From Eledone cirrhosa (taxonomy: Eukaryota), in contig OZ024740.1 of assembly GCA_964016885.1 (NCBI GenBank), positions 394,630,001 through 394,694,000 of the forward strand: DNA of 64,000 nucleotides, in the 5' to 3' direction. The position numbers were made by a program, and so were the translations under genes. This document shows, one piece after another, positions 16,949 to 44,885 of the stretch; position 1 is the stretch's first letter; each line of letters begins with the position of its first letter. A model generated the notes under the pieces. It had not been told where the DNA came from, did no database searches, and saw only the letters and a program-made list of their open reading frames with translations.

Positions 16949-17822
16949 TCTCAATGTAAGAACATCAGGTGTTTTACAGAGCACGAATATAAATTACACA
17001 ATTATCAAAGTTATGTTCAAATGATTTTATTGCTGACAATCGTTTTTTCCAAACTTTCGTTTGGAATCATCGGAGCATTATCAATGTTTGTGCATATAAT
17101 TAACCTCCTATTCAACTGAACAATCATATAGATACATATATATTGATGTTGTGAACAATAGTTTCGTATTTACAGGGTGGAATGGATGCGACATATATTA
17201 TACGAGAATTGTACAATAATTCAAATTAAAGTTAAAAGCACAGAGTGGAATACATGCGACAGATAATACAAGAGAATAGTCTAATAATTAAAGAGGCATT
17301 GAGAAAGAATGAGGACACTAGCAGTACACATGCAAGCGTGTAGAAAGTGAACATGTGTTAGTTATATATATGCTTGTATTTTATGTGATACCTTTGCCAT
17401 ACAGTATTTATATATGCCTAATACCTTTGCTTGTTTCCTTCTCATATATATGACTAACGTATGTGCACTCTCTACACACTTGCATATGTACTACTAGTGT
17501 CCTCATTCTTTCTCAATGCCTCTTTAATTATTAGACTATTCTCTTGTATTATCTGTCGCATGTATTCCACTCTGTGCTTTTAACTTTAATTTGAATTATT
17601 GTACAATTCTCGTATAATATATGTTGCATCCATTATACCCTGTAATTACGAAACTGTTGTTCACAACATCAATATATATGTATCTATATTCAGATGAATA
17701 GGAGGTTAATTATATGCACAAACATTGCTAATGCTCCGATGATTCCAAACGAGAGTTTGGAAGAAACGATTGTCAACAATAAATTGATTTGAATATAACT
17801 TTGATAATTCTGTAATTTATAT
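16949..17822 (-). mobile_element. PLE-type fold-back (inverted pLTR pair, ~380-bp arms) next to (TA)n
   Basis: 16988-17372 is the reverse complement of about 17443-17822. A hammerhead-like motif lies in each arm. Confidence 0.8.
17732..17778 (+). ncRNA. Hammerhead-like motif, CCGATGA core variant
   Basis: TGCT-CCGATGA-TTCCAAAC(GAGA)GTTTGGAA-GAAAC-GATT-GTC. The mirror copy near 17032-17078 (-) restores stem I TGCT/AGCA. Confidence 0.6.
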
Positions 17823-18139
17823 ATACAAGAGGGTAGTACAGCATATTCGAAGCTCTGGTTGCGGGCAAGCTAACGAATGGTGTCTTGAAGTGCAGCCAAG
17901 AAGACTCAATAGGGAATTTTACCTTATATATATATATATATATATATATATATATATATACAGATGTGAGAAAAACCACAAACCCTCCATCTCAATTCTA
18001 CTTTTGAAAAGCAGAAGAACTGCGAAACCGGTAACGGAACCAAAGAAATATATATTTAAAAAATATGACTCCAGTTGCATTTTCGATTTCATCATTTTTC
18101 CTTATACTTTCACGCGTGTAGGACACCTCATATATATAT

Positions 18140-18312
18140 ATATATTTGTTTATATAACGACCAGCGTTGTAAAGTCATTTGCAAAACCTCTCTGGGAAAA
18201 GGAACATGCTTCGAGTCTCGTGTTATGTAATGATTTATATGAAAATTACGGAGAGCTTGTATAATCACGGAAGAAAGGGTAGGAGCAATATACGGATGTA
18301 GCTTCATCTCTG
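18140..18312. repeat. ~175-bp dispersed direct repeat (second copy 20799-20971)
   Basis: TATTTGTTTATATAACGACCAGCG...GATGTAGCTTCATCTCTGT is present twice with few mismatches. Confidence 0.85.
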
Positions 18313-18432
18313 TTTATACAATATATGTACTTATATATGTACATGTATATAAATATTTATATATACATATATATATATTTATATATACATATATATATAT
18401 ATATATATATATATATATATATATATATATAT

Positions 18433-19480
18433 ATATAGATAATTTAATATATCAACTAACATAAGCGCACAGATGCACGCCTATGCCAGCAAATACACAG
18501 GTTATGTCATAGTACCTAGGTGGTTCAATGCAGGAGGATGCAGAACAATAATATAAAAGACGTAAAATAAGAAAATCCTTTAAAAAAAATTTTTTTTTAA
18601 ATTTTTACTTACTTAAATTTTCACTCCAACTAATTAGTTTCTGCAATGGGATAAAGACAGTTACGTAATCTAACTGTCGAGAATTCATTGCGTCATCAGG
18701 GAGTCTATTCTCAGCTAAGTCTCCAGGCAATGCGCGGACACTGGCGGCTCATATAAAAATAATAATAATTCGGTAGATGGAACAGCTAGCGAGGACTGAA
18801 TTCCATGCACTGAAATCCTCACTGCCTCTAGTCAAATGGCCGATTCTAAAGAATCAATCACGTGACACAGAGGCTAGTCAGAAGGAATGGGATGGTAAGA
18901 TGACAGACGCCTACTAACACCCCCCAAAAAAATTTTTTTAGAAGTGGTTTTGGCAGGTTTGCTCGACAAATCAGTGATTTGGAGATAAATATAGATAATT
19001 TAATATATCAACTAACATAAGCGCACAGATGCACGCCTATGCCAGCAAATACACAGGTTATGTCATAGTACCTAGGTGGTTCAATGCAGGAGGATGCAGA
19101 ACACTAATATAAAAGACGTAAAATAAGAAAATCCTTTAAAATAAGAAAATCCTTCTGACTAGCCTCTGTGTCACGTGATTGATTCTTTAGAATCGGCCAT
19201 TTGACTAGAGGCAGTGAGGATTTCAGAGCATGGAATTCAGTCCTCGCTAGCTGTTCCATCTACCGAATTATTATTATTTTTATATGAGCCGCCAATGTCC
19301 GCGCATTGCCTGGAGACTTAGCTGAGAATAGACTCCCTGATGACGCAATGAATTCTCGACAGTTAGATTACGTAACTGTCTTTATCCCATTGCAGAAACT
19401 AATTAGTTGGAGTGAAAATTTAAGTAAGTAAAAATTAAAAAAAAATTTTTTTTAAAGGATTTTCTTATTTTACGTCTTTA
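18433..19480 (-). mobile_element. PLE-type element: direct repeat (18433-18583 / 18990-19140) plus inverted pLTR arms (18553-18886 / 19151-19480), flanked by (TA)n
   Basis: Near-identical direct and inverted copies read directly. Canonical hammerhead in both arms. Confidence 0.85.
19332..19413 (+). ncRNA. Type I hammerhead ribozyme (mirror copy 18623-18704, minus strand)
   Basis: Stem I ACTCC/GGAGT; CTGATGA; stem II GCAATG/CATTGC with nested GACAGTTA/TAACTGTC; GAAAC; palindromic stem III AACTAATTAGTT; GUU triplet. Confidence 0.85.
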
Positions 19481-41807: not shown

Positions 41808-43224
41808 CTTCAGTGGAAAAGCAGAATGGAATATTTAGCATTAATTATGTAATCGAGGTGAAATTGCCTCACCTAGATCTCTAAGAACCACTCGTCCTAA
41901 TAACAGCTTATTTCTTGTTCTATAGAGGGTTTTATGGTTTGGCACTAAAACTAAATATTAGAAAGTATATACTCGATACTCTACTTTTATAGGTAACCTT
42001 CACTAAGCTTGAAAATAATTAGGTGTTTATGATTAGTGGAAAGCGTAACGTGAGACATTAATTTCTATTGAAGTATCATTAAGATATTGTATAGACAAAA
42101 AAGTCTTAATTACCAACCAATTCACCTCCTCTTAATCAGAGTTATGTATCCCCTGACGATTAGATTTATTGACCAAACTCATACACTAGTGTGTACGCAC
42201 GCACACGTACGCACAAGCACACACTCGCATATATACTGACATCAATATATATATACACAAGTGTTGCAAGTGATCTCTTTTAAGTAGTATATTCATCGGT
42301 TATTTTTAACGGCGAATACAAACATCACACAGACCTAAACAACAACAAGTATGAATATCTCTAGAATGTTCCCAGAAGGGCTAGCGGTAAGCCTTGCAGT
42401 TAGATCTAGTTTCGAGAATTCAAATTCTATGAGACATCAGATCATTATTCATTAAAACAGTCACCTGATATAGAGCCGTGTAAATTAGTATTCATAGTAT
42501 TCATACCTAGCAACACATGCCTGGGTTTACAAAATATAGCTAAAGCCAATCATTTATTAATTTGTTATGATTAGCATATCTCTGCATCACTGAAAATTAG
42601 GTTTGTCGAATCATTTCTGTCACATTATTGGAAAATAATGTCCATCTAATTCCTTCCCAAGCATTTCGTCAATCGCAGTTAGGACTCGAAAAGTAAAAAC
42701 TGATCATTTTACGTAAAAGAGGCTTTTCAAATGCTGTTGCTCAAATCAGTATGGATTGTAACCATATCTCCATTTAAACAGTCTATCATCTGAATAAAGG
42801 TGAAACACCAGCGTATGTTATTAACACTTCCACATCTTTGCCCATCTAGTATAAAAGTCTTTCATCTATTTGAAAACTTTACTCTGCTGCATCCTCATAG
42901 ATGTTTCATAATTACTTATGTCAATTTTTCCTCTACTCTTCTGGGATTCCGTTTTTATTTTATTTTTTGCTAATGAAGAATATTAACTGCATCGATTTCA
43001 CCATTTTGGGAAAGCTTACAAAAGTGAGGGGCGCAATTTCTTTTCTGAATGAGAAATTAATACCATATTAGCAACTGCAAAACTTATATTATTATTGATT
43101 TGTTTTGCACTTGGGCACTCAAGCATTGATATATATATATATATATATATATATATATATATATATATATATATATATATATATATATATATATATATAT
43201 ATACATATATATATATATATATAT

Positions 43225-43640
43225 AAACAAGAAGTGTAAGTCAACGGGTTAAAATTAGCTTCGTTTATTGATATTCACTGTTATGTATATTTCAGTAATA
43301 GCCATTATTCAACAGCTATGACCTCATCAGGCAGTAAGAACTTGAACAGCAAAAACAGGAAAACATAATGTTGTGATAGATTTTACCTTGTTAATCCATT
43401 GATATTTTCAGATCTAGAGTGTGGTGTTAGACCTCTAAGGAACTGAAAGCATATGATTTAGAATGAACGAATTTCAGCGTCCAAAGGAATATGAATAAAC
43501 GAAGCTTATTTTAGCCTGTTGACTTACATTTCTTGTTTTTACATTACTCCAGAGTAAACAGACCAGCCTGCGCACTTCGTTGAATGCTCCAACCTGCATA
43601 CTGAGGTGTCGGTAAACAACCAACACATGCTCAAAATTAT
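43225..43640. mobile_element. PLE-type fold-back (arms 43225-43276 / 43487-43540) with degenerate hammerhead at 43278-43334 (-)
   Basis: Inverted 50-bp arms. CTGATGA-GGTCATAGC..GCTATTACT-GAAA. (TA)n on both sides. Confidence 0.7.
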
Positions 43641-44597
43641 ATATATATATATATATATATATATATATATATATATATATATATATATATACAGTGGCGG
43701 ACTGGATCTAAAAATATTAGTTGCCAGAAGTGAAGGGGGCCCACCTACATATAGAATGCTATCATTTAATTTTTATAGCGAATAAATAACATTTTCGAAA
43801 AATACGTAAGTGGAAACAAAACAGTGCAATCAAATGTTTGCGGAAAAATATCTTACGTTCTCCGATAAAAGTTATTATGTGTCTTGCGAAATCCAGAGAC
43901 TTGCAATAATTACCAGAAGTTGACCCTAAATATTACTAATAGCTCTAGGAATGCCTTGAACGACACCACATATTTTTAGCTTTGATTTTGAAAGTAGGTT
44001 TATAATTATCAATTTTCACGGTACTTTTGTAGCTGTCTCGGTGTGGCCTAGTTGGAGGAATCATAGACTGTGGAAATCCAGATCAGAAGTTCGATCCTGG
44101 TCGGGTGCAGGATTCCCGGTAAAGCTTTTCCATTTTTTTTCTGTGTTGTAAAATCAAAATTTGACCAGGATTGAAACCAAGGTCAGGATCTCCACCGTCT
44201 CTAGTACCTACCGCTAGGCCACAGAGAGAACTACGAAAATCTTATGAAAATTCATACTTATAAACCTACTTTCAAAATTTTCAAAAGAAAGTGTTGCAGT
44301 CTCGTTCATGTCTTTCTTAATGTTATTGCTCCCGCTTAAGGTCGACTTCTAAATCATTTGGGTGTTCCATAAACTATATCCTCGATTTGTTTCACATCTC
44401 TCTAGACTATATTTTAACCTTTAATCCATGTTACGTTTCTGTTGCACCTCATTTCTCCCCATCCTCTTTCTCTTTCTCTCTGCGATATTTGAATCTACTA
44501 TGATTTGGGCTTACCTTATTCATATATATATGTTTTTGCATGTCAGATCCAAACTTACAATGATTGGCATTATATATATATATATATATATATATAT

Positions 44598-44885
44598 AAT
44601 TGGTGTTGGATGCTGAAAGCGTCCGTATGAGGTAGGCCGTATGAACACCCAATGTCCTCGTAGAGCAGAGTATGATATCACAGAAAAAAGACGATCAGTG
44701 TTGCGACGAAAGGAATTTATTGGACATATTACAATTGGTTCTCGGGCGAACAGCTCGAGGCACGATCGATAAGGTGATCAAACCTGACTCTGAAATCACG
44801 CGGTCGTCGGATACGTCTCGATTCTACAAAGCAGATTTTCCTAATTCCTTTCGTCACAACACTGATTCTCTTTTTTCTGTGATAT
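44598..44885 (-). mobile_element. Short PLE-type fold-back (arms 44674-44716 / 44843-44885) between (TA)n tracts
   Basis: Inverted 43-bp arms. Minus strand CGTAT-CCGACGA...GAACCAATTGTA-ATATG. Confidence 0.7.

Follow-up and report, generated by a model that had tools for sequence, protein, structure and literature searches.

What are the elements that recur between microsatellites in a 64,000-nt stretch of the Eledone cirrhosa genome (GenBank assembly GCA_964016885.1, contig OZ024740.1, positions 394,630,001 to 394,694,000 of the forward strand; hereafter "the window", with positions counted from its first base), each of them a sequence followed by its own inverted copy, and how were they inserted? 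The window is AT-rich, animal-type DNA with dense microsatellites; it was analysed as assembly sequence, and copies were compared within it. We report that the elements are very probably (probability about 0.93) head-to-head, 5'-truncated insertions of Penelope-like retrotransposons (PLEs). Specifically, one of them carries a broken open reading frame (ORF) for part of a reverse transcriptase (RT) followed by a GIY-YIG endonuclease (EN), and hammerhead motifs lie in the 3' segment that is repeated in inverted orientation, which bears out the derivation from PLEs proposed in a preliminary description of this DNA. They are best classified as new Hydra-clade families of PLEs, together with their truncated insertion products.

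Fold-back elements between microsatellites

The inverted arms were located by self-BLAST after masking of simple repeats and by arm-to-arm alignment; masking was needed because an unmasked inverted-repeat search was drowned in (TA)n, and the arm alignment coordinates overrun the flanking repeat by a few bases. Arms were present at all 11 positions named in the preliminary description, the fold-back elements of which are thus real, and at one further position, N; those of element C were missed by the masked self-BLAST, seen only by arm-to-arm alignment and are marginal. Between 15001 and 52000 we found 21 local inverted matches, some from outside these elements, while shuffles of the same region gave none in 28 cases out of 30 and one in the other two. 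In the list below each element is given by letter and named position, extent, arms (left/right, with identity), spacer and other features; solo pieces and fragments are included.

A (16949): 16950-17822; arms 16987-17372/17443-17822, 358/380; spacer 70 bp; 37-bp tail on the left (16950-16986); tailed copy on the minus strand, tail-less copy on the plus strand ending in (TA)4; hammerhead core CCGATGA at 17736 (+), mirrored in the left arm.
Tail-like fragment: 17824-17924 (-); the 101 bp to the right of A, beyond the short (TA)4 and outside A's arms; has TA runs on both sides and contains an ATTGAG box; apparently a separate piece.
B (18433): 18437-19478; arms 18548-18886/19150-19489, 336/338; spacer 263 bp; 111-bp tail and long minus-strand copy (18437-18992), a second copy, tailed and truncated, in tandem with it (18993-19149), and the tail-less copy in inverted orientation (19150-19478); each arm with a full hammerhead, 19337 (+) and 18699 (-).
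C (22191): 22195-22399; arms 22188-22223/22312-22344, 30/33, marginal and old; spacer 88 bp; 55-bp right tail with ATTGAGTAC; left end on (ATAC)n; 3' half of a hammerhead only, in the left copy.
N (23824): 23824-24494; arms near 23824 and at 24305-24428; absent from the earlier list; long tail-less minus-strand copy with a degenerate hammerhead; plus strand with a tail and, at 24305-24428, three short restarts in tandem.
D1 (24495): 24495-24703; arms 24579-24634/24640-24695, 54/56; spacer 5 bp; 84-bp left tail; 117-bp palindrome with a 5-nt loop, centred 19 nt upstream of GAAAC.
D2 (24806): 24806-24989; arms 24806-24856/24858-24908, 51/51; spacer 1 bp; perfect 103-bp palindrome with a 1-nt loop, 12 nt upstream of GAAAC; 81-bp tail.
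Tail-end fragment of family I: 25055-25081 (-); 27 bp, 96% identical, inside a (TA)n array.
E (25251): 25251-27742; arms 25434-25756/27438-27746, 300/308; spacer 1681 bp; 183-bp tail, 3' repeat, truncated ORF and inverted tail-less 3' repeat (27438-27742); hammerheads at 25677 (-) and 27517 (+).
ORF of E: 26030-27437 (-); broken; C-terminal/thumb region of RT (27437-27129), linker, CxCX5C, GIY-YIG, CxxC and CxH; frame changes near 27120-26830, 26760 and 26230.
F (27862): 27862-28172; arms 27969-28062/28077-28172 (94/96 bp), 90/92; spacer 14 bp; 107-bp tail; loop of 14 nt, its centre 31 nt upstream of GAAAC; of the hammerhead only the 3' half.
H (34249): 34249-35130; arms 34377-34688/34841-35141 (~300 bp), 298/301; spacer 152 bp, pyrimidine-rich and continuous with the tail-less copy; left tail of ~130 bp; 3' half of a hammerhead and a degenerate 5' core.
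X1: 35201-35345 (+); solo tail-less copy with a minimal hammerhead at 35271, between TA tracts.
I (38024): 38024-38195; arms 38107-38154/38156-38203, 48/48; spacer 1 bp; tail of 83-91 bp; perfect 81-bp palindrome centred on a CTGATGA core.
J (43225): 43226-43637; arms 43219-43276/43487-43544, 51/58; spacer 210 bp; long tail-less minus-strand copy (43486-43226) with a full hammerhead at 43330; short tailed plus-strand copy with a 51-bp arm and a 93-100-bp tail.
K (44598): 44599-44881; arms 44671-44717/44843-44888, 43/46; spacer 125 bp; tailed minus-strand copy, 39-bp tail-less arm; degenerate hammerhead in the spacer, with core CCGACGA and a 7-bp stem I.
X3: 58041-58096 (+); tail-only copy of family X.
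D3: 58961-59014 (-); solo copy of family D, TA on both sides.
X2: 59168-59357 (-); tailed family X copy with (CA)n after its 46-bp tail.

Arms range between 33 and 386 bp and spacers between 1 and 1681 bp in the 11 named elements, and the whole makes up the size series that had been proposed, here read as truncation products from 2.5 kb down to approximately 170-210 bp. All 12 elements have head-to-head geometry, with partial tandems in B and N, and each has exactly one tailed end; no symmetric head-to-head element was found among the masked self-BLAST matches in the window. The one-sided tail of the preliminary description is therefore general, with a length of 37-183 bp instead of 40-180 bp (the tail of A is its 37-bp left extension). 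In 10 of the 12 elements a (TA)4+ run lies no more than 12 bp from the tail-less end, the position of which comes from the alignment and is independent of the microsatellite; this applies to 3.5% of unmasked positions and to 1/24 ends of SINE-like repeats. The exceptions are C, which abuts (ATAC)n, and I, which is separated from TA by (TC)n. The tail end is defined by the start of the microsatellite, so its adjacency to the microsatellite is circular except in families with two copies.

Divergence between the arms spans 0 to 9.8% in the ten named elements compared, which implies different insertion ages; in eight of these the arms differ (0.6-9.8%, with indels, and 26 transitions and 20 transversions in total). 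This bears on whether fold-back reads could have produced chimeras in the library or the assembly: the arms are identical in D2, I and the TA-centred palindrome, in favour of such an origin, but the diverged arms of these eight, the recurrence of end points within families (see below) and the publication of the same geometry from other genomes make this origin highly improbable.

Among the TA tracts between 15 and 52 kb, 21/43 adjoin PLE-assigned segments, which occupy 8568 of these 37000 bp. An insertion splits one TA tract into two, but targeting alone explains the adjacency, which therefore lends no support to the suggested expansion of TA tracts by such insertions. Formation of the arms after insertion, in which self-complementary (TA)n would fold back during repair of a break and inversely duplicate the neighbouring DNA, would draw on the self-complementarity of (TA)n and on the perfect (TA)10-centred palindrome at 38263-38358. 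However, TA is at the outer ends in the 12 elements and never central, and it is invariably the hammerhead-bearing 3' segment that is duplicated, whereas SINE-like repeats and other flanks never are; we consider this explanation improbable.

Coding sequence, hammerhead motifs and clade

The coding sequence is confined to E. Positions 27437-27111 (minus strand) match five proteins at 45-51% identity (E-values to 1e-24), all of which carry RT motifs and then GIY-YIG, and 26575-26192 match 2478 proteins at an E-value ≤0.001 in a HMMER search; a word-based protein search with the EN piece gave zero matches. With tblastn of 155 fetched proteins against the window, RT and then EN were colinear on the minus strand of E, i.e. 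the order of EN+ PLEs: the C-terminal region of RT followed by a C-terminal GIY-YIG on one strand. The same search gave no other convincing ORF piece in the window, only one weak match (E-value 0.002). The ORF is cut off exactly at the inversion point, 27437, the RT catalytic core being lost to 5' truncation. For the homologue P0110 the Atlas neighbours are HTH_animal/GIY-YIG clusters, and a PDB sequence search with it gave 0 matches.

The linker of E, CNCRYPNAC, corresponds to CxCX5C ahead of GIY-YIG; among the 155 homologues CxCX5C is present in 132 and CX2-5CxxC in 16. The GIY-YIG core of E is without the cysteine pair (CCHH absent); CDLC..E follows, and CQH in another frame. RWK and DKT, motifs of the N-terminal RT region in the Hydra clade, were found in two of the three homologues of ≥550 aa and DKG in none of the 155, the corresponding N-terminal region being missing from E. 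According to PMC8557442, the CxCX5C linker, CxxC/CxH and the absence of CCHH are diagnostic of the Hydra clade, nearly all families of which insert in (TA)n, including one from Octopus bimaculoides (supplement of the same paper). By these motifs and its (TA)n target E is a predicted Hydra-clade PLE, with the RT core absent from the window, and most of the other elements probably belong to this clade as well. The Neptune clade was rejected for E, which has neither the CX2-5CxxC linker nor the CCHH motif, and so was the Naiad/Chlamys clade: the EN of E is C-terminal, and hammerheads are present.

With a strict type I descriptor five hammerheads were predicted between 14501 and 64000 (two in B, one in J, and those at 29474 and 35271), while 94 of 100 shuffles gave none and six gave one; a looser scan matched A, E twice, J and 48612, and a narrower first descriptor gave two matches only. 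Inspection by eye of the sense-oriented copies showed the core and stems II and III in I, degenerate motifs in K and N, no more than the 3' half in C, D1, D2 and F, and the 3' half with a decayed 5' core in H. In total, a whole or partial hammerhead is found in all 11 named elements, four by program and seven by eye. Stem II loops reach 50-95 nt. Since the hammerhead of E has the same sense as its ORF, every element reads as two outward-pointing 3' ends.

Further PLE 3' fragments with a hammerhead and no inverted arm lie at 29474 (+), 48612 (+), 35271 (+) and ~59285 (-), each stopping near a microsatellite. Moreover, in A (17736), E (27517/25677) and K (~44810) C replaces U at core position 4, in both arms where there are two.

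These motifs allow comparison with known systems. Hydra-clade members such as Penelope-13_HM and Hydra-1_Obim (PMC8557442) have RT with a C-terminal GIY-YIG, the linker and CxxC/CxH, as does E, and a hammerhead near the 3' end and (TA)n targets, as here. Several motifs in the window resemble the Hydra-clade hammerheads in File S2 of that paper in that stem III pairs with itself and stem II has a 1x1 mismatch at its base; by eye, the motif listed there for Hydra-1_Obim is matched by no hammerhead in the window. The supplement lists a 5'-truncated inverted copy at the 5' end of Penelope-13_HM. Family X and the 48612 fragment, which lack an inverted arm here, resemble the Penelope/Poseidon type instead, i.e. 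the minimal PLE hammerheads of PMC4209133, which are of type I with a palindromic short helix III and an extra base before stem II, as here; they differ from A, E and K in the base at core position 4 and from the window motifs in stem II loop length. In Schistosoma, opposite-strand motif pairs are 100-700 bp apart (PMC4209133). The non-LTR retrozymes (bioRxiv 10.64898/2026.07.22.740005) are also non-coding, hammerhead-bearing and PLE-derived, but they are head-to-tail tandems with a hammerhead per unit, whereas the elements here are head-to-head, variably truncated and single, with partial tandems only in B and N. A non-LTR retrozyme was rejected; there is no same-strand tandem unit with two hammerheads in the window.

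Inverted arms, TA flanks and the lack of coding capacity in 10 of the 11 named elements could also suggest non-autonomous DNA transposons of the MITE/Foldback type, with long terminal inverted repeats and insertion in TA, and a true terminal-inverted-repeat element with TA flanks is present in the window (45976-47257). Against such transposons, one arm always has a 37-183-bp extension beyond it and the repeats are therefore not terminal; in addition, E codes for RT and GIY-YIG and no transposase, and hammerhead motifs as well as single-arm and tail-only copies occur; we judge them to be a very unlikely source. The architecture is textbook for PLEs and is on record for the Hydra clade: one-ended tails, a bias towards microsatellites and inverted copies truncated at the 5' end have all been published (PMC8557442, PMC3846280, PMC8969392).

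Recurring end points and the route of insertion

Copies also occur as solo pieces between microsatellites, namely D3 (arm only), X1 (tail-less), X2 (tailed), X3 (tail only) and the 27-bp end of I. D1 and D2 are 83% identical and form one family, and one motif recurs in tails across families; to call the elements "unrelated", as had been done, is therefore an overstatement. Ends recur in all three multi-copy families: the tail ends of D1 and D2 coincide, as do the tail-less ends of D2 and D3, with that of D1 ~7 nt away; the tail ends of X2 and X3 are ≤2 nt apart, and X3 starts ~13 nt ahead of the end site of X1; family I and its fragment have ends ~6 nt apart. The motif shared by the tails, ATTG(A/G)(A/G), is present once per tail in 9 of 13 tails (1.7 expected; none on the opposite strand), and D1, D2 and I end 49 nt past it, while TACTC was seen by eye within approximately 20 nt after the tail-less site in C, F, H, I, J and K. 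Whole-tail similarity across families exceeds that of shuffled tails (0/300). At the tail-less junction the alternating A/T run averages 3.62 nt, compared with 1.97 at random positions (0/10000 draws), and is ≥4 nt in 8 of 13 junctions; since the element itself carries this run, we suggest that a TA primer pairs with the RNA at the tail-less site. Both tailed X copies (ends 58096 and 59168) are on (CA)n and the tail-less X1 is on (TA)n.

The seven long-spacer elements bear on how the two copies arose. In E, K and B the spacer is part of the tailed copy; in J and N, judged by hammerhead sense, it is part of the tail-less copy; in A and H it probably also belongs to the tail-less copy, with a pyrimidine fraction of 0.69 and 0.73, respectively, like the right arm. 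The tail-less copy is thus the longer one in 4/7, shown for J and N and inferred for A and H. This matters for the mechanism proposed in the preliminary description, a snap-back, taken here to mean that a single cDNA (or an antisense template) forms a hairpin and is extended on itself as far as the tail boundary. Such self-priming is compatible with the geometry of E, K and B, junction palindromes are interpreted in this way in PMC3846280, and an antisense template has already been proposed for Adineta Penelope. However, a fold-back arm cannot exceed its template, which excludes fold-back of a tail-primed cDNA where the tail-less arm is longer, and a tail cannot come from a cDNA primed at the tail-less site; snap-back therefore fits J and N, and probably A and H, poorly. 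Likewise, the solo copies D3 and X1 stop at the tail-less site without any fold-back, there is no reason why a snap-back should halt at a fixed tail boundary, and none of the seven long-spacer junctions has a palindrome clearly above background (best arms 1-4 bp, background mean 3.0). A single snap-back mechanism for all elements is thus not supported.

Four tight hairpins (D1, D2, F and I) have their centres 12-31 nt upstream of GAAAC, within stem II or the core of the hammerhead, i.e. in a ready-made hairpin, and here snap-back fares better: the palindromes of D2 and I are perfect, with loops of 1 nt, and the loops of D1 and F are 5 and 14 nt. In F, three of the four arm differences lie in the stretch from GAAAC to the centre, which is what a natural imperfect stem at the centre would produce. 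For these four, annealing of two cDNAs via stem II and fold-back of one cDNA are both possible. D1 and D2 have different centres, D3 is single-armed and starts at the palindrome centre of D2, and nothing indicates that the short hairpins multiply in this form; those of ~100 bp look like the most truncated members of the series, inverted at stem II or the core of the hammerhead, and not like a separate family. Overall, snap-back is an unlikely explanation for the set as a whole, and it should yield to two-ended priming for most elements.

We consider it somewhat probable that each of the two ends of the cut DNA primes a copy of its own, and prefer this to one folded copy. The GIY-YIG endonuclease would cut both strands inside a TA tract, and each cut 3' end would prime reverse transcription of the element RNA. 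One cDNA would start at a distal site and give the tail; the other would start at a proximal site 37-183 nt upstream, often at a short AU-alternating RNA run that pairs with the TA primer. Both would stop early and independently, their 3' ends being joined head to head, and the spacer would be the surplus length of the longer cDNA. If both stop in the hammerhead region, stem II might anneal them (or one might fold back), giving hairpins of 80-200 bp, while single priming would leave solo and tail-only pieces and restarts the partial tandems in B and N. That the tail is always on one end could mean that both ends are primed on one RNA with strand displacement, or that RT acts as a dimer. Two cDNAs from the two sides of the cut explain all seven long-spacer elements, the solo pieces and the B and N restarts.

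The Poseidon PLE PAc from Anolis cuts and extends both strands in vitro, and two RT start sites bound its tail (PMC11167929). The two recurring end points match these two start sites, and we read them as fixed start sites. More tentatively, and with less than even confidence, we propose a Hydra-type two-ended reaction with the distal and the proximal site fixed per end, the proximal one partly by pairing of (TA)n with the RNA, in which the ATTG(A/G)(A/G) box (often with TACTC just after the proximal site) would mark initiation and stem II would join two aborted cDNAs into miniature hairpins. Penelope/Poseidon elements (the Adineta Pen2a type, PMC3846280; PAc, PMC11167929) share with those described here the head-to-head 3' repeat, the one-end tail, some junction palindromes, partial tandems and two 3' end points. 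They differ in that Adineta insertions have 8-10 bp target-site duplications (PMC3846280) while those here target microsatellites, and PAc initiates without homology to the cleaved DNA (PMC11167929) while 8 of 13 proximal junctions here have a 4-5-nt TA-like run. Their tails are 30-40 bp (PMC3846280, PMC11167929), the length also given for PLEs in general (PMC8557442); here only A (37) and X (46) come near it. When the hammerhead position is subtracted from the consensus length for 24 rows of a table in PMC8557442 (Penelope-18, with the motif at its 5' end, excluded), nine values fall at 87-105, five at 119-152, nine at 171-210 and one at 425. This hints at long, optional tails as a common feature of the Hydra clade; Hydra-type tails may be ~100 nt instead of 30-40 nt.

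Several points count against parts of this interpretation. Pfam gave nothing above cutoff in the five ORF pieces of E or in P0001-P0005, and Rfam gave no hammerhead among the 150 of 263 whole-window matches listed or in four targeted searches, the matches obtained being miRNA or snoRNA models below threshold. Compared with shuffles, six of seven candidate folds have z between -1.4 and +0.3, only B reaching -3.3, and A, E and K have the variant core CCGAnGA. Coding sequence being limited to E, the other elements are assigned to a clade by hammerhead style and tail motifs. With regard to the mechanism, the tail box was discovered post hoc, whole-tail similarity is not above that of random window segments (79/300 draws reach the observed value), and five of the 13 junctions (D1, D2, F, J and N) have little TA microhomology (≤3). 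The absence of homology at PAc initiation is a further such point. In A and H the spacer was assigned from base composition only, a tailed copy could have lost length through a later deletion, and the evidence comes from one window.

PMC8557442 lists as open questions how PLEs come to form tandem and inverted structures and why they prefer microsatellites, and PMC11167929 leaves unvalidated what follows first-strand initiation. If the more tentative two-ended reading is true, the genomic size series is a direct readout of the unsolved second-strand and inversion step of PLEs. About ten families lie within 28 kb here, and in such a dense multi-family series countable predictions (the longer copy, end pile-ups and hairpin centres) separate two-ended from self-priming. 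The available parts of PMC8557442 contain no analysis of the longer copy, tail motifs or miniature hairpins, and the literature searched, with few subscription journals and Repbase reports, gave nothing on spacer ownership, the tail box, long tails, stem-II-centred hairpins or TA-like microhomology at the tail-less end. With the more tentative reading it would also follow that much of the MITE-like or unknown repeats between microsatellites in this genome is PLE debris (~8.6/37 kb here). Because the elements are invisible to Pfam and Rfam here and MITE-like, repeat libraries of microsatellite-rich invertebrates may under-count PLEs.

Other repeats in the window

Apart from the PLE-derived elements, three tandem L1/Tx1-like LINE copies, 78-82% identical, occupy 1603-14478 (a fourth may begin before base 1), with an APE and RT ORF at 10897-13434 and ORF1 upstream. 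A dispersed 190-bp SINE-like family, 80-91% identical, is present at 16547, 31090, 39182-39556, 44940 and 52021, and at 60580-61525 and 63536-63875; it served as the TA-adjacency control. The element at 45976-47257, with short terminal inverted repeats (CAGTGGCGGACT) and TA flanks, is probably a DNA transposon; a partial copy of it extends from 43692, within a permuted duplication (43692-44570/45197-46197, 80-90% identity). The perfect palindrome at 38263-38358 has 38-bp arms, lies beside a TA tract and shows no convincing hammerhead; its geometry is unlike that of the other elements, and it is possibly a microsatellite fold-back. An imperfect palindrome of 63 bp at 28821-28883 is without TA flanks and is partly repeated at 29342-29372, upstream of the 29474 hammerhead. 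A direct duplicate of 157 bp (18157-18313/20816-20972) is 97% identical, with a short AT run before each copy. Finally, 52412-57869 is a purine-rich minisatellite of approximately 274 copies of 20 bp, almost without CpG.

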